DNA of 64,000 nucleotides from Minisyncoccota bacterium (GTDB taxonomy: Bacteria; Patescibacteriota; Minisyncoccia; Phycocordibacterales; UBA9973): positions 19,795 through 83,794 of the forward strand of contig JBAZXO010000001.1 of the NCBI GenBank assembly GCA_041659785.1. The letters run 5' to 3'. Under the pieces are notes generated by a model. The model was not told where the DNA came from. It saw only the letters and a program-made list of their open reading frames with translations, and made no database searches. Position numbers and translations under genes: made by a program. The stretch's first letter is position 1; each line of letters begins with the position of its first letter. This document shows positions 5,609-63,555 of this stretch, piece by piece.

Positions 5609-5668
5609 CCACCTAACCCTCTCCTTATGAAGGAGAGGGTGGCATCTTTAATAAGATGACGGGTGAGG
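5609..5668. repeat. GC-rich palindromic element, family C copy (ccctctcc-ttatgaa-ggagaggg stem plus gggtgagg tail), downstream of rbfA; possible terminator
   Basis: ccacctaaccctctccttatgaaggagagggtgg ... gacgggtgagg. Same architecture as the copies at 22171-22225, 24626-24664 and 25063-25099. Confidence 0.7.
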
Positions 5669-5678
5669 TGTATTAATC

Positions 5679-6012: not shown

Positions 6013-7530
6013 TTACTTTTGTATTATTGAGAATGATTCGAGTACATCTCCAGCGACGACTTCTATTTTTGATTCAATCATCATTCCGAATTCAGATCCT
6101 TCTTCGACGGTGCTTGTTTTTATTTTATTTTTTTCTAAGTTAATGATTTTTGCACGACCAATTTCAAATTCTCTGCGCATTATTCTGACTGTACTGTTTA
6201 AGTTAATTTGTCCAACGGTAACTTTACCTCCCACTATTTGGCGTTCTTTTGTGCGGCTAAAAGCTCGAATAATCTTTGCGCTCCCTGTTGTCTCCATGGT
6301 TTCAATCTTGGGCCTTCTTATTTCCATTTGTTCTTCCAGCCATTCTGTCATTTTATAAATGATTTCAAAGTATGAAATAGTTATTCCTCTTTTTTCTGCT
6401 ATTTCTAGCGCGCTTTTATCTGTCTTTACATTAAATCCGATGACGAGCGCGTCTGCACCAGAAGATACTCCTTTTATATCAGATTCAGAAATGGGTCCGA
6501 TGCCTTTTACCACGATTTTAAATTCAGCATTATCGTTCTGTATTTTAGTGATTTCTTTTTCAATAGCCTCGATAGAACCTGAAACATCTGCTTTTAATAT
6601 TATAGGTATAATTTTTTTTTCTCCCCCTTGAGAAGGGGGAGTGCCCAAAGGGCGAGGGGGTAATTTTTCTTTCCAATTTTTCACACATTTTTCAGCATCG
6701 CTCTTTTTTTGAAAAGTTTTAAATTGTGCTCCAACTCTAGGCATTTTGTCGAAGCCCACAACACGCACCGGGGAAGAGAATGTAGCTTCATCGATTGATT
6801 TCCCCAGGAAATTTTCGATTATTCGAGTAGAGCACATAGTGTCTTCTACAACGACTGTCATACCTTTTTTAATTGAGCCATTTTTAATGACCAAGGTAGC
6901 CATTATTCCACGCCTAGAATCTAAATTTACTTCAATAACAAAACCAGAAGCGTCAGCGCTACTGTCACCGGTTAGATTTTCCATATCAGCTAGAATTAGA
7001 ATGAGTGATAGTAAATCATCCACGCCTGTGCCGACTTTTGCTGAAATTTCTGCAAATGGAACCTTGCCACCATAATTTTCTAGATAAATTTCATTTTCTG
7101 CTAATTCCATTTTTGTCTTTTCGACATTAGCACCTGGTTTATCTATTTTATTTATCGCGACGATATAAGGAATTTTAGATTCTGTAATAGTTTTCCAAGC
7201 TTCAATCGTCTGAGGCTTTACTCCATCTTCGGCTGACACTACTAAGATTGCGATATCAGCTATTTCTGCACCGCGTTCTCGCATTTTCGAGAAAGCTTCA
7301 TGCCCAGGTGTATCTAAGAAAGTTATCTTTCTATTTTGTCCATTTTCATCTTTATGAATAACTTCATAAGCAGAGATTCTCTGAGTTATTCCACCAGTTT
7401 CATTTTCAGTAATGTTTGTTTTTCTAATGTAGTCTAATAACGTAGACTTTCCATGGTCGATATGACCCATGACAGCCACTACTGGCGGATGTGCTATTAT
7501 TTGATTTTCTTTTTGTTTGTTTTTATCCAT
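6013..7530 (-). CDS. infB: translation initiation factor IF-2 (short form lacking N-terminal domains)
   Basis: G-domain [33 protein letters not shown], followed by the C-terminal beta-barrel domains. Confidence 0.9.
6621..6660. repeat. GC-rich palindromic element (family B) inserted in-frame inside infB; it encodes ..[18 protein letters not shown]..
   Basis: ctcccccttgagaagggggag is a perfect 7-bp-arm palindrome, followed by gcccaaagggc and gaggggg. Local GC far exceeds the rest of the gene. The reading frame is uninterrupted. Confidence 0.75.
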
Positions 7531-8035: not shown

Positions 8036-9334
8036 ATGCTCAAATCAAACTTGTCCCGCCGTGGCGGGGTAAAAGGATCAAATAAAATATATCTAGATTA
8101 TGCTGCGAGTGTAGAAGCGAATCCTAGTTCGATACATTCATTTGGCGTAGATGCAAAAATAAAACTTCAAAATGCGCGAAAAGAAGTAGCGAGTGTTTTA
8201 GGCTCTAGACCTGAAGAAATAATTTTTACGAGCGGTGGCACAGAAAGCAACAACCTTGCGATACAAGGAGTTGTTTGGTCAATTATTGAAATGCACACAT
8301 ATTCGCCTGTTGGCGAATTGCTCTGCTCGGCTCGTCAGCCCGCGCAAGGCATTTCAAAAACTACCAAACAACTCCTTCCACACATTATAACCACAAACAT
8401 AGAACATCCCTCAGTACTTGAGACTTTTAAATTATTAGAAAAAAGAAAACTCGCACAAATTTCTATAGTAGAAGTTGAAGCAAATGGGATAGTGGATCCA
8501 AAGAAAATAAAAAAAGAAATAAAGGAAAACACAATACTTGTTTCGGTTATGTATGCAAATAATGAAATAGGCACGATTCAGCCAATTCGTGAGATAGCAA
8601 AAGAGATTAGGCATTTTAAGAAAATAAAGGAAATCAATTTTTTCTCAGGTCCTCGGAAAAAATCCCCAGACCGTTCAAAAAAATTATTCCCTTCATTTTC
8701 TTTCCCGTTATTCCACACTGATGCAGTGCAAGCAGTTAATTATTTAGACCTTAATGTAGAAAGGCTCGGTGTGGATTTGCTTTCATTATCTGGCTCAAAA
8801 ATTGAGGGAGGAGGCAAAGTAGGAGTTCTTTATAAAAGAAAAATAGTTAAACTTGCAAATGTATATGGTGGAGGGGATCAAGAAATGGGATTACGTCCAG
8901 GGACAGAAAATTTATCAGAAATTTTGAAATTTTCTAGCGCATTAAAATTAGCGCAAGATATTAAAGAAAAAGAAAGTAAACGATTAACAAAACTTCGTGA
9001 TTATTTTTTTAGAGCCGTAGCGGGTAAGGCAATAATTAACGGTGATCTAAAAAATAGATTACCAAATAATGTGAATATAACGTTTCCAAAAATTCCAAGC
9101 GACCTTTTGGTTATTGAACTTTCTGCGAAAGGTATCATGGCATCTTCGAAAAGCGCTTGCAAAAGTTCCAGCTCAGAAGGTTCATATGTCATAAAAGCAA
9201 TACACCCAGAGATAGATAGAGAGATAGGCGGACTTCGTTTTTCGATGGGCAGAAAGACTACAAAGAAAGATATCGACTATACAATTAAAGTTTTATCTCA
9301 TATTTTGACAAAACTAAAAAAATGGTATGATTAG
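8036..9334 (+). CDS. cysteine desulfurase / class-V aminotransferase (IscS/NifS-like) with lineage-specific insertions
   Basis: IYLDYAAS N-terminus, ..TTNIEHPSVLE.., the PLP-lysine motif SLSGSKI, GLRPGTEN. A GC-rich mini-palindrome sits at codons 5-12 (8049-8069). Confidence 0.8.
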   Translation: MLKSNLSRRGGVKGSNKIYLDYAASVEANPSSIHSFGVDAKIKLQNARKEVASVLGSRPEEIIFTSGGTESNNLAIQGVVWSIIEMHTYSPVGELLCSARQPAQGISKTTKQLLPHIITTNIEHPSVLETFKLLEKRKLAQISIVEVEANGIVDPKKIKKEIKENTILVSVMYANNEIGTIQPIREIAKEIRHFKKIKEINFFSGPRKKSPDRSKKLFPSFSFPLFHTDAVQAVNYLDLNVERLGVDLLSLSGSKIEGGGKVGVLYKRKIVKLANVYGGGDQEMGLRPGTENLSEILKFSSALKLAQDIKEKESKRLTKLRDYFFRAVAGKAIINGDLKNRLPNNVNITFPKIPSDLLVIELSAKGIMASSKSACKSSSSEGSYVIKAIHPEIDREIGGLRFSMGRKTTKKDIDYTIKVLSHILTKLKKWYD

Positions 9335-14859: not shown

Positions 14860-15288
14860 ATGAAATACAAAAAACAAATAGCCACAGGTGCACTTGCAAT
14901 ATCATTATTAGTATCAGGTTCTAGCGTTTTTGCTGCGAGCCCTCAAGATCTAGGGATCAAAAATGTACACTCAACTTATCAAAAGCAAAACAAAAATAAT
15001 AAAAATTTAAAAAACAGAAAGATGGGTAAGAATAATATTGTTGGAACCATCGGAGCATTGACTGCTACAGGCTTTACGGTAGATGTAAGGAATATGAAAA
15101 CTAAAATCGCCTCTTCAGTAGATGTTAAAACAGATACTTCTACTATTTATAAGAAAGATGGAATTAGTGCTACATCACTCGATCTTGCCGTAGGACAAAA
15201 GGTAATTGTTGCTGGTACTTTAGATAAAACGATAAATATTTTAACAGCTAAAACAGTAAAGATAGTTACTAACAAGAAAAACTTGTAG
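14860..15288 (+). CDS. hypothetical secreted protein (signal peptide, K/N-rich)
   Basis: ORF with an ..SSVFAASPQ signal peptide; no recognisable domain. Confidence 0.35.
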   Translation: MKYKKQIATGALAISLLVSGSSVFAASPQDLGIKNVHSTYQKQNKNNKNLKNRKMGKNNIVGTIGALTATGFTVDVRNMKTKIASSVDVKTDTSTIYKKDGISATSLDLAVGQKVIVAGTLDKTINILTAKTVKIVTNKKNL

Positions 15289-15346: not shown

Positions 15347-17146
15347 ATGGAAATTAGAAATATAGCAATAATAGCTCACGTGGACCACGGCAAGACGACC
15401 TTGACTGATGCTTTAATGAAGCAAAATGGTGGATTGCAAGATGAGGGAGTATCAATGGATTCAAACGATCTTGAAAAAGAGCGTGGTATTACCATTTATT
15501 CTAAAAACACCTCGATTAATTATAAAGATACAAAGATAAACATTGTAGATACTCCTGGTCACGCAGACTTCGGTTCTGAGGTGGAACGTGTTTTGCGCGC
15601 AATTGATTCAGTTCTGTTGCTCGTGGATGCAGCTGAAGGCCCAATGCCACAGACTAGATTCGTTCTAAAGAAATCTCTAGAATTAGGATTGAAGCCAATC
15701 GTGGTTATAAACAAAATAGATAAACCAGCAGCTGATGCACACAGGGTGCATGAAGAAGTTTTAGATTTATTTTTCGAACTAGGCGCTAATGAAGAGCAAG
15801 CAAATTTCGAAACTATTTATGCAATAGGACGTGAAGGTAAAGCATTTAGACATTTAGATGATAAGTCTGAAGACCTTTCTCCTTTACTTGATTTAATATT
15901 AGAAAAAGTTGCACCAGCTTCTCTCGACGAAGAAGGAAAAATGTCTGCACAAGTTTTTAACCTAGGTTATGATAATTTCTTAGGAAGAATGGCTATCGCA
16001 CGTATTTATTCTGGAAAAATGTTATCTGGAAGTCAGGTATTCGTTAAAGGTGAAAATGGAACACGAAAAGGTAAAATCACAAAGCTTTTTTCTTTTGAAG
16101 GGATAAACAGAAAAGAGATAGAGTATGCAACTTCTGGTGACATAGTCTTACTATCTGGAATTCCAGATATTTATATTGGAGAAACATTATGTGAAGATGA
16201 GAGCATCACACCATTACCGCACATCGCTATCGATGAGCCAACCCTTTCCCTTAATTTTTTAGTTAACGATTCTCCTTTTGCTGGGAAAGAAGGTAAATTC
16301 CTTACCTCAAGACAAATTAAAGAAAGACTAGAAAAAGAATTAGAAATAAACGTTGGACTTAAGGTTGATTTTTCTCCGGACCAGGGCGACAAAATGGGTC
16401 CTTCCTTTTTTAAAGTATACGGCCGAGGTGAACTTCATATTGCAATCTTGCTTGAAAATATGCGCAGAGAAGGTTTCGAGATGCAAGTTTCTCAACCAGA
16501 AGTTATTATCAAAGAAGAAAATGGGGTAAAAACAGAGCCATATGAAGAGCTCGTGATTGATGTTCCGATGGAATCAAGCGGATCTGTAATAGAAAAAATT
16601 GGGAAAAGGCGTGGTCTCATGAGAGACATGGTAGAGAAAGAAGGTATAGCTAGAATTATTTTTGATATACCTACACGTGGTCTCTTGGGTTACCGTAGTG
16701 AATTTATTATAGACACAAAAGGAGAGGGAATAATGTCTTCTCGGGTTACTGGCTTCAGAGAATACGCTGGAGAAATCAAAAAAAGGGAGTACGGCTCTAT
16801 GGCTTCTATGGTATCTGGTAAGGCAGTAGCCTTTTCACTTGCAAATTTACAGGAACGTGGTATATTGTATGTAGATCACGGTACTGAGGTTTATGAAGGA
16901 ATGGTTGTCGGTAACGTTTTGAAAGGAGACGACATGTCTGTTAACCCCACAAAAGGTAAACAGCTCACAAACATGCGAGCTTCTGGTACAGACGAAGCTA
17001 TCACCCTTAACCCTGTTTTTACCTTGAGTATCGAACGTGGTCTTGAGGTTATGAATGGAGATGAATATTTAGAAATCACACCAAAATCTGTTCGACTTCG
17101 TAAAAAATATCTTACAGAGATTGACCGAATTAAAGCAAAGAGATAA
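15347..17146 (+). CDS. typA: translational GTPase TypA/BipA
   Basis: IAIIAHVDHGKTTLTDAL..DTPGHADF..NKIDK, then EF-G-like domains and the BipA C-terminal domain. Confidence 0.9.
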   Translation: MEIRNIAIIAHVDHGKTTLTDALMKQNGGLQDEGVSMDSNDLEKERGITIYSKNTSINYKDTKINIVDTPGHADFGSEVERVLRAIDSVLLLVDAAEGPMPQTRFVLKKSLELGLKPIVVINKIDKPAADAHRVHEEVLDLFFELGANEEQANFETIYAIGREGKAFRHLDDKSEDLSPLLDLILEKVAPASLDEEGKMSAQVFNLGYDNFLGRMAIARIYSGKMLSGSQVFVKGENGTRKGKITKLFSFEGINRKEIEYATSGDIVLLSGIPDIYIGETLCEDESITPLPHIAIDEPTLSLNFLVNDSPFAGKEGKFLTSRQIKERLEKELEINVGLKVDFSPDQGDKMGPSFFKVYGRGELHIAILLENMRREGFEMQVSQPEVIIKEENGVKTEPYEELVIDVPMESSGSVIEKIGKRRGLMRDMVEKEGIARIIFDIPTRGLLGYRSEFIIDTKGEGIMSSRVTGFREYAGEIKKREYGSMASMVSGKAVAFSLANLQERGILYVDHGTEVYEGMVVGNVLKGDDMSVNPTKGKQLTNMRASGTDEAITLNPVFTLSIERGLEVMNGDEYLEITPKSVRLRKKYLTEIDRIKAKR

Positions 17147-18206: not shown

Positions 18207-18221
18207 ACTTAACTCCCTAAA

Positions 18222-18279
18222 TCCCCCTTATCAGGGGGACTTCTAATACCACGTATTTTCTCTCCCCTGACAAGGGGAG
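18222..18279. repeat. two family B GC palindromes (tcccccttatcaggggga; ctcccctgacaaggggag) in the intergenic spacer
   Basis: Read directly; each has 6-7 bp GC arms. Confidence 0.7.
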
Positions 18280-18338
18280 GATCAGGGAGGGGTTGTGTTC
18301 TGCTTTGTTTATTTTGCTTTTTATACTAAAATAAGAGC

Positions 18339-21225: not shown

Positions 21226-22470
21226 ATGAAGAAGAAAGTTGTTTTTGTCGGTATATCAGGAGGCGTAGATAGCGCTGTTTCAGCCGCAATGCTTAAAAAG
21301 CAGGGTTTTGACGTGGTGGGAGTTTTTATTAAAACTTGGCATCCAGATTTTCTAGAGTGTAATGAAGAAGATGAGCGTCGTGATGCTATGCGTGTGGCAG
21401 CTTTTTTAGATATTCCTTTTCTTACTTTTGATTTTGAAGATGTTTATAAAAAAGAAGTAGCTGACTATATGATAAGTGAATATAAGCTGGGGCGAACACC
21501 AAATCCAGATGTGATGTGCAACAAGGAAGTGAAGTTCGGCGCATTTCTTAAAAAAGCTCTTTCAATGGGTGCAGACTTTGTGGCGACTGGACATTATGCG
21601 GAGAATGGCGAGGTAAAAGTTGATTTTTTGAGTGGTGACGTTGCGAAGCAGGATATTCCTGAAAAAAAACAATTTTTACATCGCCAGCAAGACAAAACAA
21701 ATCATGCTTTTCTCAACCTGCCTGCTAAAGCAACGTCGGTATTCGAAAAACATAATTTGTTTTGTCTTAAAAAAGGTGTAGATTCATCCAAAGATCAAAG
21801 TTATTTTTTATGGACACTTAGACAAGAACAATTGAAGAAAATTTTATTTCCAATAGGGCATCTCAAAAAGACAGAAGTAAGAAAACTTGCTAAGAAATTT
21901 AGTCTTCCTGTAGCAGAGAAAAAGGATAGTCAAGGTATATGTTTTTTAGGAGCAGTAGATTTGAAAGATTTTTTGAAGCACTATATTAAAGTAAAAAAAG
22001 GAAAAGTTGAGAATGAAAAAGGGGAAGTAATTGGGCATCATGATGGGGCAGTTTTTTATACTTTAGGGGAAAGGCATGGTTTTACAATCACACAAAAAAC
22101 ACCGAAAGATGGTGCATATTACATAGTGGGTAAAGATATAAATAAAAATATTTTATATGTGTCACAAAATCCTCTCCCCAACCCCTCTCCATTAGTAACT
22201 AATGGAGAGGGGCGAAGGGGTGAGGCAATTAAAATTATTAATACAAATTGGATTTCAGAAGTTCCAGAAATTCACCCCGCCGATGGCGGGGCAAGTAAAA
22301 ACTATACTGCGCAGATTCGTTACCATAGTGAATTTTTGCCTTGCAAAATTAAAGTTCTTTCTAAGAATAAAGCTGAAATAATTTTTACAAAAACAATCTT
22401 GGTTGCTTCTGGCCAATCCATCGTGGTCTACGATGGTGATATTTGCTTGGGTGGTGGAGTAGTTGTATAA
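21226..22470 (+). CDS. mnmA: tRNA-specific 2-thiouridylase MnmA, carrying lineage-specific in-frame insertions
   Basis: VFVGISGGVDSAVSAAML PP-loop; ..ATGHYA..; KDQSYFLW. 414 aa against a typical ~360. Confidence 0.85.
   Translation: MKKKVVFVGISGGVDSAVSAAMLKKQGFDVVGVFIKTWHPDFLECNEEDERRDAMRVAAFLDIPFLTFDFEDVYKKEVADYMISEYKLGRTPNPDVMCNKEVKFGAFLKKALSMGADFVATGHYAENGEVKVDFLSGDVAKQDIPEKKQFLHRQQDKTNHAFLNLPAKATSVFEKHNLFCLKKGVDSSKDQSYFLWTLRQEQLKKILFPIGHLKKTEVRKLAKKFSLPVAEKKDSQGICFLGAVDLKDFLKHYIKVKKGKVENEKGEVIGHHDGAVFYTLGERHGFTITQKTPKDGAYYIVGKDINKNILYVSQNPLPNPSPLVTNGEGRRGEAIKIINTNWISEVPEIHPADGGASKNYTAQIRYHSEFLPCKIKVLSKNKAEIIFTKTILVASGQSIVVYDGDICLGGGVVV
22171..22295. repeat. two different GC palindromic elements inserted in-frame in mnmA: family C at 22171-22225 and family A at 22275-22295
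   Basis: cccctctccattagt-a-actaatggagagggg is a perfect 15-bp inverted repeat, followed by gaaggggtgagg. Then ccccgccgatggcggggcaag. They encode NPSPLVTNGEGRRGEA and HPADGGASK. Confidence 0.8.
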
Positions 22471-24596: not shown

Positions 24597-24625
24597 ATTT
24601 GGAAGATAAATTATTAAATTAAAAA

Positions 24626-25099
24626 CCTCACCCCTGCCCCCTCTCCAGAATACTGGCGAGGGGTAAATGCAACATACTAAGTGTGCTATATTTTAAGTAA
24701 TGGTTATATTAAAAACAATAATTAAAGCAAGATATTTAAGGAAAGAAGAAACTAAAACAGAACAAATACTTTGGGAGAAACTTAGAAATAATAATCTTGG
24801 TATGAAATGGAGAAGACAGCATCCTTTGGATATGTTTATCCTTGATTTTTACGCACCTAAAATAAAACTCGCGATAGAATTAGACGGTTCTATTCATAAT
24901 ATAAAAGAAAATAAAGAATATGATAAAGATAGAACAGATTATTTGAAATCTAAAGATATACAAGTTCTGAGATTTTGGAATTCTGAAGTAGAAAAAGATT
25001 TAGAAAACGTTTTAAATAAAATAAAAGAAAAAACAAAAGAACTTTTATAAGTTTGTATTTTTCCCCTCTCTGGTACTCCGGAGAGGGGAAGGGGTGAGG
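24626..25099. mobile_element. candidate miniature cassette: a DUF559 gene bracketed by inverted copies of the family C GC palindromic element, with 10-bp terminal inverted repeats CCTCACCCCT / AGGGGTGAGG
   Basis: Left element 24626-24664 (cctcacccctgccccctctcc..gcgaggggt). Right element 25063-25099 (cccctctctggtactccggagaggggaaggggtgagg). The two ends are exact reverse complements. Confidence 0.5.
24700..25050 (+). CDS. DUF559 (Vsr-like PD-(D/E)xK endonuclease-fold) domain protein
   Basis: ARYLRKEETKTEQILWEKLRNNNLGMKWRRQHPLDMFILDFYAPKIKLAIELDGSIH..VLRFWNSEV matches the DUF559 consensus. Confidence 0.7.
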   Translation: MVILKTIIKARYLRKEETKTEQILWEKLRNNNLGMKWRRQHPLDMFILDFYAPKIKLAIELDGSIHNIKENKEYDKDRTDYLKSKDIQVLRFWNSEVEKDLENVLNKIKEKTKELL

Positions 25100-25145: not shown

Positions 25146-25161
25146 TGGGGGGGGGTTATAA
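25146..25161. promoter_or_regulatory. G9 homopolymer abutting a TATAAT -10 box upstream of a surface-protein gene (candidate slipped-strand phase-variation site)
   Basis: ctggggggggg ttataat at 25146-25161; ATG at 25197. Confidence 0.5.
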
Positions 25162-25196: not shown

Positions 25197-26282
25197 ATGA
25201 ATAAAAAAATATTAAGTGTTTTAGTTTTTTCTTTGTTCGTTTTAGGTGCCACAAAAGCTTTCGCTTCTTTAACCTTCAGCTCAGCTGCTATTACAGGAGA
25301 TGCTGCTTCTACGATAGATGTAGGTGCAGGGAATGCTTTGTCATTACAGACTACGAACAACGGAGCGATAACCACAGGAACAGGTTTAGTTACATTAGGA
25401 GGAAGTTTAAATGCTGCAGGTATTATTACTTTACCCATGACTACAAGTTCAACGACTGGTGTCATCTATAAAGGAGCAACACCTTTTATTCATAATTTTA
25501 ATTTTGGAAATAATGGAACAGTTACAACTGATGGTAAAAATACCTTCGTTGGAATAAATGCTGGTAATTTTACAATGGGGAGTACTGCGACATTAACATA
25601 TGAAAGCAGTAGTAATGTTGGTATAGGTCAAGATGTCTTAACAATTAATACTAAGGGATATGGTAATACTGCAACAGGTTGGTCTGATTTAAAACTTAAC
25701 ACTACTGGTAGTTGGAACACTGCATATGGGGTAACGGCACTTTATAATAATACAACGGGTAGTAATAATGTAGCAATTGGTGGAGAGGCATTAGGTTTTA
25801 ACACCATAGGTGGAGAAAACACTGCAGTTGGTGTTTATGCTCTTGATTTCAATACTACAGGAAGTCTTAATACCGCTAATGGTATGTACTCTCTTAGCTC
25901 TAATAGCACTGGTTCTCGCAACGTTGCATTGGGATACGCCGCGGGAGCGTACGAATTAGGGTCTAGTTCATTTTACGTAGATGCTTATGACCGAGCAAAC
26001 ACTGCAGGGGATAAAGCAGGGGCTTTGCTATACGGAACATTTAATGCGACGCCAAGTCTTCAGACTTTAACTATCAATGGAAAGATTACTGCAAGTAATG
26101 CTATGAATAAAGGCACAGTAGCTCTCTCTGCTGGCACAGCCACAGTCACAGTTGTCTCTGGTGCTGTCTGCGTAGTTAGCGAAACGACAACTGCTACAAA
26201 TGGAGTTAAGGGTGCAGTCGTCGGCACAACGCTTACAATCACGGGTACTGGTACAGATACTATTGCTTATATTTGTTTGTAA
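25197..26282 (+). CDS. secreted G/T/N-rich repeat surface protein (paralog A)
   Basis: Signal peptide MNKKILSVLVFSLFVLGATKAFA. Degenerate NTxxG..AL repeats. The N-terminal 55 aa and the promoter are duplicated at 36875. Confidence 0.5.
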   Translation: MNKKILSVLVFSLFVLGATKAFASLTFSSAAITGDAASTIDVGAGNALSLQTTNNGAITTGTGLVTLGGSLNAAGIITLPMTTSSTTGVIYKGATPFIHNFNFGNNGTVTTDGKNTFVGINAGNFTMGSTATLTYESSSNVGIGQDVLTINTKGYGNTATGWSDLKLNTTGSWNTAYGVTALYNNTTGSNNVAIGGEALGFNTIGGENTAVGVYALDFNTTGSLNTANGMYSLSSNSTGSRNVALGYAAGAYELGSSSFYVDAYDRANTAGDKAGALLYGTFNATPSLQTLTINGKITASNAMNKGTVALSAGTATVTVVSGAVCVVSETTTATNGVKGAVVGTTLTITGTGTDTIAYICL

Positions 26283-28835: not shown

Positions 28836-29069
28836 ATGAGTGACCTAAGAAAAGAAAAAATAGTAACAGCGAGGGGAGTTGTCACTGAGGCACTACCTTC
28901 TACTTTATTTAGAGTCAAAATGGAAGATAAGGAAGACGAAGGAAAAGAAATTCTTGCATACTTGGGAGGAAAAATGCGGATGCACAGAATTAAAGTTTTG
29001 ATAGGTGATTCAGTCGAAATAGTGCTCGATCCTTATGGCGGAAAGGGAAGAATCGTTAAAAGGTTGTAA
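28836..29069 (+). CDS. infA: translation initiation factor IF-1
   Basis: S1-like 77-aa protein ..ALPSTLFRVKMEDKEDEGKEILAYLGGKMRMHRIKVLIGDSVEIVLDPYGGKGRIVKRL. Confidence 0.9.
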   Translation: MSDLRKEKIVTARGVVTEALPSTLFRVKMEDKEDEGKEILAYLGGKMRMHRIKVLIGDSVEIVLDPYGGKGRIVKRL

Positions 29070-43972: not shown

Positions 43973-45409
43973 TTAAATCTTAGAAATCTTTTGCCCCATG
44001 TTTGTATCCTTAACTTCATAACCCAGAGAATTTATTTTTTCTCGAAGCTCATCGGACTTTTTAAAATCTTTATCCTTGCGAGCTTGTTCGCGTTCTTCGG
44101 CTAGCTTTTTTACTTCTTCAGGAATTACGTCTTCCTTTAAGTGTTCGAAGCCTAACCCTAACACTTTATCGAAGTCTAAAATTGTAGCTTTCTTGTCGGC
44201 GTCTGACATGTTTTCATCTTTAAAAACATCCCACAATAATGCTAAAGCCCTAGGGGTGTCTAGGTCGTCTTCTATGTATTCTTTAAACTTATTTTGGTAT
44301 TCCTTATGTACATGGCCCACTTGCCCCGTCCTTGGCGGGGACTCATTTGCCCCCGCCTCAGGCGGGACAAGAAGCCCTAAATAAAGGCCATAAAGGCGTT
44401 TTAAGGCTGTTTCAGCGCCCTCGAGTGCTTCCCATACAAAGTTGACTTTAGTACGATAGCTAGCCATTAAAAGCCAAAAACGATAGGTTATAGGGTTTAT
44501 GTTTTTTTCAATTAAACTTTCCAATCTTAAAAAATTATTTGCTGATTTAGACATTTTCTCGTTACCTGTATCAACAAATTCACTATGCATCCAGAATTTA
44601 ACAAAAGGCTTTTTACCAGTAGCGCATTCTGATTGAGCTATTTCATTTGTGTGATGTGTAGGTATAAGATCAATGCCCCCTGTGTGAATATCAAATTGTT
44701 CACCAAGAAATTTTAGACCCATAGCAGAACATTCAATGTGCCATCCCGGAAAACCAATTCCGAAAGGGGATTCAAAACCAATTTTATTATCAGTCTTCCA
44801 CAATGCGAAATCTTCAGGATTTATTTTTTCAGAATTTTCTGTTACCCTAGCTCCTTCTTTGTTCCAGTCCCTTTTACCACTCCAAAGTGCTCCATAGTCA
44901 GGCATTTTAGAAACATTGAAATATATTCCATCACTTGTTTTATATGTGTATCCTTTTTCTGTTAGTTTTTGGATTAATTCAATGTCTTCTTTAACATAAT
45001 CGCTTGCAAAATATAAACCTGAAGGCATTTCGATATTAAGGGCTTGTAAATCTTTTTTAAAACTTTCAGTATAAAATTCTGCAAGCTCACGCATGTTTTT
45101 TAGCGTTAATTCTTTTCCTTCTCGCAAAAGTCCCTTGGTCATTTTATCTTCACCAGAATCAGCATCACTTGAAAGATGCCCGATGTCAGTGATGTTCATG
45201 ACTTGCTTTACTATAAATCCTTCATATTGAAGAGTGCGATGTACCAAGTCGGCAAAAAAGAAAGAACGCAAATTACCTATATGGGTATAGTTATAAACTG
45301 TTGGGCCACAGGTATACATTCGTACCTCCTTCGGATCTATGGGGGTAAAAATGTCTTTTTCTTTAGTTAGAGTGTTGTAAAATTTTAAAGCCATTTTATT
45401 TAAATTCAC
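43973..45409 (-). CDS. cysS: cysteinyl-tRNA synthetase carrying an in-frame double GC-palindrome insertion
   Basis: MYTCGPTVYNYTHIGNLR (HIGH), KMSKS, zinc-binding Cys/His residues. The insertion encodes ..VPPEAGANESPPRTGQVGH. Confidence 0.9.
   Translation of the reverse strand: MNLNKMALKFYNTLTKEKDIFTPIDPKEVRMYTCGPTVYNYTHIGNLRSFFFADLVHRTLQYEGFIVKQVMNITDIGHLSSDADSGEDKMTKGLLREGKELTLKNMRELAEFYTESFKKDLQALNIEMPSGLYFASDYVKEDIELIQKLTEKGYTYKTSDGIYFNVSKMPDYGALWSGKRDWNKEGARVTENSEKINPEDFALWKTDNKIGFESPFGIGFPGWHIECSAMGLKFLGEQFDIHTGGIDLIPTHHTNEIAQSECATGKKPFVKFWMHSEFVDTGNEKMSKSANNFLRLESLIEKNINPITYRFWLLMASYRTKVNFVWEALEGAETALKRLYGLYLGLLVPPEAGANESPPRTGQVGHVHKEYQNKFKEYIEDDLDTPRALALLWDVFKDENMSDADKKATILDFDKVLGLGFEHLKEDVIPEEVKKLAEEREQARKDKDFKKSDELREKINSLGYEVKDTNMGQKISKI
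44320..44371. repeat. composite of two adjacent family A palindromes inside cysS
   Basis: cttgccccgtccttggcgggg + actcatttg + cccccgcctcaggcgggacaag. The outer ends cttgcccc.../...gggacaag are themselves inverted. Confidence 0.75.
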
Positions 45410-47478: not shown

Positions 47479-47495
47479 GTTTGGTTATTATATAC

Positions 47496-47545
47496 CCCCT
47501 CCGCCTTTGGCACCTCCCCCTTATTAAGGGGGAGGAAGGGTGGGG
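47496..47545. repeat. perfect 23-nt palindrome cctcccccttattaagggggagg (family B), flanked by ccgcctttgg and an aagggtgggggtga tail, between recR and dnaB
   Basis: Read directly. Confidence 0.75.
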
Positions 47546-47550
47546 GTGAC

Positions 47551-62457: not shown

Positions 62458-63555
62458 ATGAAGGAAAAAAAAGTAGATAGATTTTTTCTAATAATTGTAC
62501 TTATATTACTTTTTTTTGGTGTTGCTATGTTTGTCTCAGCATCACTTGGGGTCTTGGCGAAGAATCCAGCCATTTTTTATCAAGTGATTTTTAGCCAGTT
62601 AGTCCTCGGCCTCGGCCTCGGCCTCGTTGGTATGTATTTTTGTTTTAAAATTGATTACAAACTTTTACGTAATTATTCCTTTTTAATTTTTGTGGGTTCG
62701 ATACTTTTGACTGCGGCAGTTTTCATACCATTTTTAGGATGGAGTCATGGGGGAGCGGAGAGATGGATACAAATAGGGAGATTCAATTTTCAGCCGGTAG
62801 AATTTTTAAAATTTGGTTTTGTTATTTATTTTGCAGCATGGCTGTCTTGGACAAGAAATAAAGTGCAAGATTTTAGATTTAAAATTTTGCCATTTATGGT
62901 GATGATTGTGGTCATCGCTGTTGTCTTACTCAAACAGCCAGACACAAAAAGTTTTATTTTAATTACAGTCACTGGTGTATCGATGCTTTTTTTATCGAGT
63001 GTTCCTGTTAAATATATTCTAGGCACACTATTGGGAGTGATAATATTACTCGGAACTCTCGTATTTGTTACTCCTTATTTACAACAACGTGTGAAAACTT
63101 TTATTAATCCGAGCGGGGATGCACAAGGCTCTTCTTATCAAATTCAGCAATCACTCATCGCTCTCGGATCTGGCGGAATGTTTGGTAGAGGTTTCGGCCA
63201 AAGTGTACAGAAATTTAGTTATTTGCCAGAACCACAAGGCGACTCTATTTTCGCTGTTTTAGGTGAAGAATTAGGTTTTATCGGTTCAACATTAACGATA
63301 TTTCTTTATATTCTTTTTATCTTACGCGGGTTTCGTATTGCTAGTCGTTCACCGGATTCTTTTAGTGGACTTTTGGTATATGGAATTGTTATACTTATTA
63401 CAGCACAGTCTTTTATGCACATTGCTTCTGTTACTGGAGTCTTTCCGTTGACCGGAGTTCCGCTTGTTTTTATGAGTCAGGGAGGTACTTCACTTATGGT
63501 GTATCTTATGGCAATAGGTATTGTGCTTAATATATCGAGATTTCAGCGGATATGA
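62458..63555 (+). CDS. ftsW: SEDS-family peptidoglycan glycosyltransferase FtsW/RodA
   Basis: ..GGAERWIQIGRFNFQPVEFLKFG.., 10 TM; gene order mraY-ftsW-murG. Confidence 0.8.
   Translation: MKEKKVDRFFLIIVLILLFFGVAMFVSASLGVLAKNPAIFYQVIFSQLVLGLGLGLVGMYFCFKIDYKLLRNYSFLIFVGSILLTAAVFIPFLGWSHGGAERWIQIGRFNFQPVEFLKFGFVIYFAAWLSWTRNKVQDFRFKILPFMVMIVVIAVVLLKQPDTKSFILITVTGVSMLFLSSVPVKYILGTLLGVIILLGTLVFVTPYLQQRVKTFINPSGDAQGSSYQIQQSLIALGSGGMFGRGFGQSVQKFSYLPEPQGDSIFAVLGEELGFIGSTLTIFLYILFILRGFRIASRSPDSFSGLLVYGIVILITAQSFMHIASVTGVFPLTGVPLVFMSQGGTSLMVYLMAIGIVLNISRFQRI
62604..62626. repeat. hexanucleotide SSR (cctcgg) x about 3.8 inside ftsW (encodes GLGLGLG)
   Basis: gtcctcggcctcggcctcggcctcg read directly. Confidence 0.8.

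Follow-up and report, generated by a model that had tools for sequence, protein, structure and literature searches.

A two-hairpin repeat of about 40 nt, translated within the IF-2 gene of a Patescibacteria genome, that probably behaves as selfish DNA

The 64,000-nt stretch of contig JBAZXO010000001.1 analysed here (hereafter the window), from a genome that we assigned to Paceibacterota/Nomurabacteria, contains an infB gene on the minus strand (6013-7530) whose coding sequence hosts a GC-rich palindromic element that we call B1. The 505-aa open reading frame (ORF) encodes a short-form initiation factor 2 (IF-2): its product was identical (100%) to a Candidatus Paceibacterota protein named IF-2 by NCBI and JGI, residues 15-504 aligned to E. 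coli IF2 (6o7k) with an E value of 6e-94 in HMMER, and the domain order (G2 GTPase, G3 barrel, C1, C2) was that of IF-2, with a concordant AlphaFold2 secondary structure. In orthologues, the Pfam domains GTP_EFTU, EF-G_D2 and IF-2 flank the element on either side. The plus strand at exactly 6621-6660 reads ctcccccttgagaagggggagtgcccaaagggcgaggggg, which on the sense strand of infB is CCCCCTCGCCCTTTGGGCACTCCCCCTTCTCAAGGGGGAG and yields a 14-residue reading (residues 291-304); the sense codons of residues 290-304 are TTA CCC CCT CGC CCT TTG GGC ACT CCC CCT TCT CAA GGG GGA GAA. A preliminary description of this DNA had reported a GC palindrome at these positions, translated as a Pro/Gly-rich stretch of 15 residues, and the intact reading frame and the sense-strand translation of residues 290-304 confirmed both statements.

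The repeated unit proved to be larger than first described: the 21-nt palindrome stood, as part of a full unit that is a two-hairpin element of about 40 nt. The complete element, on the minus strand at 6620-6661, reads A CCCCCTC GCCCTTTGGGC A CTCCCCCTTCTCAAGGGGGAG A in the sense direction, encodes the 14 residues 291-304 and is composed, in order, of a 5′ box CCCCCTC (6654-6660, minus strand), a small hairpin GCCC-TTT-GGGC (6643-6653, minus strand), a short AC spacer and a main hairpin CTCCCCCTT-CTC-AAGGGGGAG with a 9-bp stem and a 3-nt loop (6621-6641, minus strand). Folded as RNA in its context, the element reached -22 kcal/mol (z -2.3). We refer to this arrangement, A-CCCCCTCG-(small hairpin)-CAC-TCCCCCTT-loop-AGGGGGAG-A without a right arm, as type 1, of which the infB copy is a complete example; it fits the consensus of 30 copies, ACCCCCTCGCCCTTCGGGCACTCCCCCTT-NGC-AGGGGGAGA, including the invariant A at both sides. 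The infB segment is compositionally foreign. It is 70% GC, against 33-42% in the 2-kb blocks of the window; GC content at third codon positions is 28% in the window genes, and its codons CCC (13% of Pro), CGC, GGC and GGG are rare among them. The pattern CCCCCTT-N2-10-AAGGGGG matched twice in the window as against 0.00 expected from 100 shuffles, and together with the GC contrast this count shows that the palindrome match in infB is not a product of chance.

The second copy, on the plus strand at 47494-47548, fills the spacer between dnaB and recR. It has the same two hairpins, agrees with the infB copy at 36 of 42 positions and carries in addition a right arm, GGTGGGGG, which pairs with the 5′ box and closes an outer stem, giving a nested palindrome (DNA fold -20 kcal/mol, z -4.3). 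This form, B1 with a right arm and outer stem, is type 2, with relatives in L110, L120, L153 and L160. We considered whether the infB copy might be a 3′-truncated form of the 55-nt copy at 47494, and rejected this because metagenome copies show the complete type-1 element. The intergenic element on the plus strand at 18211-18294 is a REPIN-like inverted doublet, with hairpins TCCCCCTTATCAGGGGGA and CTCCCCTGACAAGGGGAG and outer arms that close (fold z -3.1); its hairpins, at 18222-18279, have stems similar to those of the infB element without its 5′ module, and its architecture recurs in L032 (~14975-15050) and L020 (~15447-15525). Since it is a doublet with outer arms of its own, it represents a different family from B1, whose copies are singlets. 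Thus, of the two intergenic copies originally proposed, that at 47496-47545 was upheld as a true homologue and that at 18222-18279 was reassigned.

The wider claim, that the palindrome is one member of a dispersed family with copies between genes, held both in the window, through the dnaB-recR copy, and in other genomes. A metagenome scan with the pattern CCCCCTC-N9-10-CAC-N0-1-TCCCCCTT matched at least 120 loci, and among the matches listed at least 43 were unique true B1 elements. About 27 of the 43 sampled copies lay in ORFs of at least 860 nt, rather than in extragenic DNA. The hosts confirmed by Pfam were MetRS, PheT, Dus, GatB, a LepA-like GTPase, a CCA-adding/poly(A) polymerase (two copies), KsgA, MnmA and Fmt, together with a type-IX secretion tail protein that marks its contig as Bacteroidota-type; PolA and UvrD were identified as hosts by eye. 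The host contigs range from 29 to 54% GC and share a single 40-nt consensus. In genes other than infB, about 15 copies were in the sense and about 17 in the antisense orientation relative to transcription, and B1 was read in all five stop-free frames, giving PPRPSGTPP.QGGE, TPSP.GHSPLAGGE, NPLALRALPLSRGR, SP..GGVAEGRGG or LPL.KGEVPKAEGV according to frame and orientation. The copies in GatB, LepA and Fmt lie between Pfam domains, as does the infB copy. Upstream of the element, a search for target specificity found a preference for TTA or AGA.

The small hairpin provided an independent view of what is conserved in B1, given that it fell in the unconstrained part of the scan pattern. The 5′ box, invariant among sampled copies, was imposed by the pattern, so its invariance is not independent evidence. 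Across 30 copies the small hairpin occurred as GCCC/GGGC, GGCC/GGCC, GTCC/GGAC and GTCT/AGAC; 95% of cells were paired, 15 cells had changed on both sides, and pair 2 was distributed as CG15/GC6/UA6. None of 500 shuffles reached the observed covariation score, and slid controls were only 9-48% paired. The small hairpin thus keeps its pairing through compensatory changes, showing that the structure is under selection. Together with the use of five frames and both orientations, these changes indicate that the conserved entity is a nucleic-acid hairpin rather than a peptide.

Two further observations came from the same scan. The CCA-adding/poly(A) polymerase gene of L153 has two type-2 copies (~6217-6245 and 6949-6977) that share a left flank of about 45 nt (tctagtttcaagtgtagRcgMagta...), which implies that the repeated unit in that genome is longer than B1. 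The scan also caught another element, highly conserved and about 95 nt long, AGAGAGGGGGCGAAGCCCCCTCTCTTACYTACACTCCCCCTTCCCTTANTAAGGGAAGGGGGTCAGGGGGATAGGTTGCTAAA, with three stacked hairpins, on contigs of about 47-54% GC (L094, L107, L114, L116, L119, L125, L129, L131, L142, L146, L149, L163, L166, L179, L183, L187, L193 and others). A phage origin of B1 was considered and set aside, the 22-nt hairpin pattern being present in only 8 of 2.9 million viral contigs; a BLAST search of the consensus against plasmids and phages returned nothing convincing.

Subsequently, we located the insert in the protein. Because the AlphaFold2 model, built on a 44-sequence alignment, had a mean predicted local distance difference test (pLDDT) score of only 68, we used only its local structure pattern. 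It comprised a helix at residues 276-289, a coil with pLDDT below 50 at 289-303 and a strand at 306-314, and within residues 190-400 the score fell below 50 at 289-303 only. The alignment with E. coli IF2 was gapped at the insert, and alignments with mitochondrial IF2 ended at residue 287/288. The position of the low-scoring coil thus predicts that the insert fills the sole disordered joint, where the G3-C1 linker helix (H8) passes into domain C1, in keeping with the inter-domain linker position assigned to it in the preliminary description. Mitochondrial IF2 carries, at what we take to be the same junction, a 37-residue insertion that replaces IF1, reportedly the subject of work by Gaur in 2008 and Kummer in 2018 (PDB 6gaw). 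Since the present genome has its own IF1 gene (28836-29069), the insert need not stand in for IF1 as in mitochondria. The IF-2 segment is most likely a tolerated passenger serving as a flexible spacer.

Comparison of 120 IF-2 orthologue proteins (76-93% identity) revealed nearly invariant flanks around a hypervariable stretch. The 14-residue peptide was present in about 18-20 of the 120, with a patchy distribution, and when the linker was excluded the nearest neighbours often differed in linker type: P0001 and P0002 (core identity 97%) and P0004 and P0011 (99%) differ by the presence of the element, P0010 and P0020 (96%) carry two different palindrome families, and P0056 and P0104 (94%) have different linker types. 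Absence of the element elsewhere together with a conserved linker, the finding that would have spoken against a dispersed repeat, was not what we observed: the element is present elsewhere, and the linker is hypervariable. At the nucleotide level, infB of the window and of the metagenome contigs L081 and L082 differed by a divergent tract at nt ~827-915, against a background mismatch of 12.5% and with no change in length; between P0004 and P0011 the tract covered nt ~815-925, and included diverged helix-coding sequence upstream of the element, and beyond it the two sequences agreed at every position for more than 300 nt. The swapped tract is thus about 88-110 nt. Replacement of a tract amid matching flanks points to homologous exchange of a linker allele, and the element most likely reached this lineage through such an exchange (~90-110 nt) rather than by clean insertion. 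In P0004 and P0005 the stems of the element have decayed (AAAGAGGAG), which indicates that the hairpin is not kept everywhere.

A survey of 82 infB loci (80 species-representative genomes and contigs L081 and L082) further identified the linker as a hot spot. The same stretch of about 115 nt hosts GC-rich palindromes of at least eight unrelated families, including B1, family A (ACCTCACCC..CCCTCTCC..GGAGAGGG), family C (a TTGGGAGCCGAGCTCCCAA doublet), family E (a CTTGGAGGCCTTGCCTC doublet) and a PARNA-encoding family (CCTGCCCGCAATGCTT..GCAGGCGGG, encoding PARNASSIADAGG). Perfect GC hairpins of at least 6 bp occurred at 1.57 per kb in the linker versus 0.29 per kb in the remainder of infB. BLAST detected copies of families A, B, C and the PARNA-encoding family outside the infB linker, for example at L041:7290, L069:4463 (inside the aminotransferase) and L030:9218, as well as many family-A copies; family E has look-alike doublets elsewhere. 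Matches of CGCCCTTTGGGC in L004 and L046 were rejected as family members, being tRNA variable arms.

Collectively, these findings make it probable that the segment 6620-6661 represents one entire unit of a GC-rich dispersed repeat, ultra-small at ~40 nt and built of two hairpins, that behaves as selfish DNA of the kind represented by repetitive extragenic palindromic (REP) sequences and Rickettsia palindromic elements (RPEs). We propose that copies would spread as single-strand hairpins mobilised in trans, that selection would spare only those copies that are stop-free, in frame and placed in loops or linkers, and that homologous recombination in the strongly conserved flanking sequence may then carry element-bearing linker alleles from one lineage to another. 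Within IF-2, the inserted residues would serve only as a flexible Pro/Gly spacer, with no dedicated role.

The leading candidate for the mobilising enzyme would be a REP-associated tyrosine transposase (RAYT)-like HUH Y1 transposase of sister genomes. The lead came from a tblastn search with a YafM query and was followed by confirmation with Pfam and NCBIfam: the 208-aa protein contains the motifs NHFHLLI and YIHxNPVK and scored above the cut-off for PF01797 (42 bits, cut-off 23), while its best NCBIfam model, NF047646 'REP-associated tyrosine transposase', scored 63 bits, below the cut-off of 80. Such genes occur in eight Nomurabacteria infB loci, as seven orthologues (L053 20229-20852, L031 20005-20628, L072 18830-19453, L032 17974-18597, L011 19956-20579, L039 12323-12880 and L074 21061-21516) and a distant copy in L062 (12237-12887) that is flanked by inverted GTGAGGCAAGACCTCACACAAGGG repeats. 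Six of the seven orthologues lie 7-10 kb downstream of infB, with the L039 copy at about 7.7 kb, and the genes appear to be single and syntenic in the sister genomes; in the present genome the corresponding position lies just beyond the window. A query with an IS608 TnpA sequence gave no match. A second candidate lead for spread is a DUF559 (Vsr-like/PD-(D/E)XK) endonuclease of 116 aa, encoded at 24700-25050 between the halves of a family-A palindrome (ACCTCACCCC...CGAGGGG at 24625-24663 and CCCCTCTC...GGGGTGAGG at 25063-25099). This gene appears either to have entered the family-A repeat or to travel with it, and DUF559 genes adjoin GC palindromes in L099 and L160 as well.

Several observations weigh against B1 being a mobile repeat of this kind. 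There is no transposase within the window, and B1 does not flank any of the RAYT-like genes found, which makes the connection between the two a lead and not a finding. Only two B1 copies are present in the 64 kb, and type 1 has neither terminal inverted repeats nor a target-site duplication, merely the invariant A on each side. The scan pattern required perfect boxes, which skewed the sample towards intact copies. Moreover, B1 has the same orientation, the same frame and the same TTA-CCCCC junction in every infB copy; linker-allele exchange explains this uniformity, which fits a single ancient insertion followed by recombination, and recent transposition into infB is not demonstrated. Finally, although the genome is under AT mutational pressure, the infB hairpin is perfect and agrees with the consensus, which could mean that it is selected for a function in infB.

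That last point opens the alternative that the hairpin works in cis on the infB gene or its mRNA: it might make translation pause at a domain boundary, serve RNase processing or stabilisation, or bind ribosomes internally. In the last variant, GGGGGAG, 8 nt upstream of an in-frame ATT, could yield a separate C1-C2 fragment, and E. coli infB is known to use internal in-frame starts. The covariation of the small hairpin would suit such a role, as would the double change in L014 and L042 (CTCCTCCT/AGGAGGAG), which preserves pairing, and the many intragenic copies at domain boundaries in GatB, LepA, Fmt and IF-2. Nevertheless, a required site is difficult to reconcile with closest relatives that lack the element, with a position that may hold any of the at least eight unrelated palindrome families or none, and with the decayed stems of P0004 and P0005; copies in other genes, moreover, face in either direction in near-equal numbers. 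Rfam gave no family match in its support: at the gathering score the window yielded only tRNAs, and the intergenic copy, at E<=10, only miRNA-like matches at chance level, so that B1 corresponds to no described RNA family. An intrinsic terminator was ruled out because no T run stands behind the hairpin on either transcribed strand (A9 follows it on the sense strand, and T9 precedes it on the plus strand). Absence from the closest relatives, alternative occupants of the site, decayed copies and use in many frames thus disfavour a functional hairpin, which we consider unlikely.

Equally improbable, in our judgement, is that the palindromes are not mobile and arose, or were duplicated, on the spot when replication or repair went wrong, through template switching or ectopic gene conversion between short GC-rich tracts. 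Evidence in this direction comes from the class-V aminotransferase gene beside infB (8036-9334), which differs from its counterparts in L081 (1165-2496) and L082 (1119-2465), at 84% identity, by three hypervariable in-frame cassettes. Cassette 3 is a 75-nt in-frame insertion in L081/L082, facing an empty site between 9024 and 9025 in the window; its ends, ACTTTCTTTTTT and AAAAAAAGAATGT, are inverted, and it terminates in CCCGCT, six bases that are reverse-complementary to AGCGGG in its left flank. A further point is that in infB a tract was replaced rather than inserted. Errors of this type would not recreate the same sequence at independent sites, however, and the one 40-nt consensus with invariant boxes across unrelated genes and contigs of 29-54% GC argues for the copying of a pre-existing element rather than for local invention.

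Less probable still, and largely refuted, is an ancestral motif of IF-2 selected as a Pro-rich 14-residue peptide, with the intergenic look-alikes incidental. About 18-20 of the 120 orthologues do share the peptide, its place, orientation and frame, and the functional insertion of mitochondrial IF2 presumably sits at the same junction, where the mitochondrial alignments end (287/288). Unrelated proteins, however, use four other frames of the identical DNA, and within IF-2 the peptide is patchy among near-identical proteins; its codons are rare with conserved third positions, the segment is predicted to be disordered, and with IF1 encoded at 28836-29069 no replacement role is required. An assembly or sequencing artefact, such as a chimeric join at a GC-rich hairpin in what is a metagenome-assembled genome, has a negligible chance of being correct, as the reading frame is intact and the same element occupies the same infB position in independent assemblies and projects (L004, L036, L039, L071, L152, P0023, P0042 and others).

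In addition to infB, three further window genes, mnmA, cysS and the class-V aminotransferase gene, bear in-frame palindromes, and the window holds about a dozen GC palindromes of all families together. Within mnmA (21226-22470), a full nested family-A palindrome on the plus strand at 22171-22225 (PLPNPSPLVTNGEGRRGEA) is missing from the ~80%-identical MnmA of L167, and a 21-nt hairpin, CACCCCGCCGATGGCGGGGCA, on the plus strand at 22273-22293, which reads HPADGGA, corresponds to a clean 7-residue gap in L167. The L167 protein, unlike that of the window, bears B1 at a third site. There, between ATGHYA and KGVDSSKDQSYFL, the window MnmA has about 47 extra residues of ordinary AT-rich coding sequence and L167 a 13-residue B1, which makes this interval a third hypervariable site of mnmA. 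The cysS gene carries two GC hairpins on the minus strand at 44324-44366 (VPPEAGANESPPRTGQ), and the aminotransferase gene a GC-rich repeat on the plus strand at 8315-8349 (ELLCSARQPAQG), which is cassette 1 of 3 and has intergenic relatives at L030 11565 and L059 3433.

Between rbfA and tRNA-Cys lies a family-A hairpin on the minus strand at 5609-5669. The spacer after rbfA always has a GC hairpin whose family varies by species, A-type (CCCTCTCC) or B-type (CTCCCCCTT), as in L007 (11913), L023 (11867), L042 (3307), L076 (3901), L045 (11857) and L070 (7692), which points either to a need for a hairpin at that place, for instance for termination or processing, or to a further hot spot. Elsewhere in the window, we noted a (CCTCGG)x4 microsatellite at 62604-62626 within the ORF at 62458-63555, a G9 homopolymer at 25147-25155 in the spacer ahead of the gene at 25197, and small ORFs at 144-548, 1496-1912 and 1930-2253 that match TrbC/VirB2 and type-IV secretion pilin families (PF04956, PF18895).

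A broader and more tentative possibility, which we consider rather less likely than not, is that B1 and its sister families constitute a class of 20-60-nt, hairpin-defined mobile elements adapted to coding sequence, stop-free and encoding Pro/Gly/Ser-rich spacers, that Patescibacteria share with at least one Bacteroidota-type contig and that have reshaped the linkers of essential translation genes again and again. The G3-C1 junction of IF-2 would then be a hot spot with recombination-shuffled alleles, domesticated RAYT-like Y1 transposases or embedded small DUF559 nucleases would move the elements, and the whole may amount to a general, undescribed engine of linker evolution in streamlined genomes. 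A search of the literature available to us found no account of such elements in the candidate phyla radiation (CPR)/Patescibacteria, which does not prove that none exists. Intragenic selfish palindromes have until now been treated as a peculiarity of Rickettsia; the element described here is much smaller, belongs to Patescibacteria and resides in some of the most conserved genes of the cell, encoding IF-2, aminoacyl-tRNA synthetases, GatB, LepA and MnmA. If general, the phenomenon could account for many odd Pro/Gly-rich 'insertions' in CPR proteins and would caution against reading such segments as lineage-specific functional motifs. It would also supply natural markers of recombination between uncultured lineages and a tractable system, a 40-nt hairpin with a candidate Y1 transposase, for studying how coding sequence is colonised without gene death.

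Among known systems, the mitochondrial IF2 insert presumably resembles the infB insert in its junction, between beta-barrel domain G3/V and domain C1/VI-1, and suggests that this junction tolerates extra sequence; it differs in being structured and substituting for IF1, whereas the B1 insert consists of 14 residues, is predicted to be disordered, derives from a repeat and occurs in a genome that encodes IF1. The cyanobacterial small dispersed repeats (SDRs) that Elhai et al. reportedly described in 2008 are said to be mobile elements of 21-27 nt with nested insertions and a shared structure supported by compensatory mutations. They would thus be comparable to B1 in their very small size and in a common secondary structure maintained by such mutations, though from another phylum and with other sequences, and to our knowledge they do not reside systematically in frame in essential genes. 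Classical REPs have a 5′ GTAG box where B1 has ACCCCCTCG. Among the GC clusters of yeast mitochondria, some lie in coding regions (var1), and byps, which derive from such clusters, are skipped by the ribosome through translational bypass; B1, unlike byps, keeps the frame and is stop-free, and is most simply taken to be read through.

With REP and REPIN sequences, B1 shares a short (20-40-nt) imperfect palindrome that forms and is conserved as a hairpin; such sequences frequently form clusters or inverted doublets, the latter seen also at 18211-18294 in a family other than B1, and the RAYT-like Y1 genes of sister genomes offer a possible partner enzyme (PMC3116915). REPs are, however, extragenic by definition and flank their RAYT (PMC3116915), whereas most sampled B1 copies are intragenic, the window has no RAYT and the RAYT-like genes found lack flanking B1. 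Type 1 differs from miniature inverted-repeat transposable elements in having no terminal inverted repeats or target-site duplication. The mobile GC clusters of yeast mitochondria, such as GC42, for which an AG target duplication was reported, are likewise GC-rich hairpins of about 30-50 nt in a very AT-rich genome, with substitutions concentrated in loops and presence/absence polymorphism, but unlike B1 they are organellar and mostly intergenic (PMC4478555). The behaviour of B1 matches that of RPEs, in-frame palindromic repeats in many essential genes (Ogata et al. 2000, as summarised in PMC10969869). Both are palindromic repeats of small, AT-rich, host-dependent bacterial genomes, found between genes and in frame in unrelated housekeeping genes, and both are translated at positions compatible with the fold, as B1 is in the IF-2 joint (pLDDT below 50) and between the domains of GatB, LepA and Fmt. 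RPEs, however, are about 100-150 bp long and are described as having a conserved peptide specific to each family, whereas B1 is 3-4 times shorter (~40 nt) and has five peptide readings; its lineage is Patescibacteria with one Bacteroidota-type contig, and the likeness is one of behaviour, with none expected in sequence. In sum, B1 resembles REP/REPINs in size and hairpin logic, and possibly in its partner enzyme, but departs from their extragenic location; it also resembles yeast GC clusters, and in its behaviour it matches RPEs.

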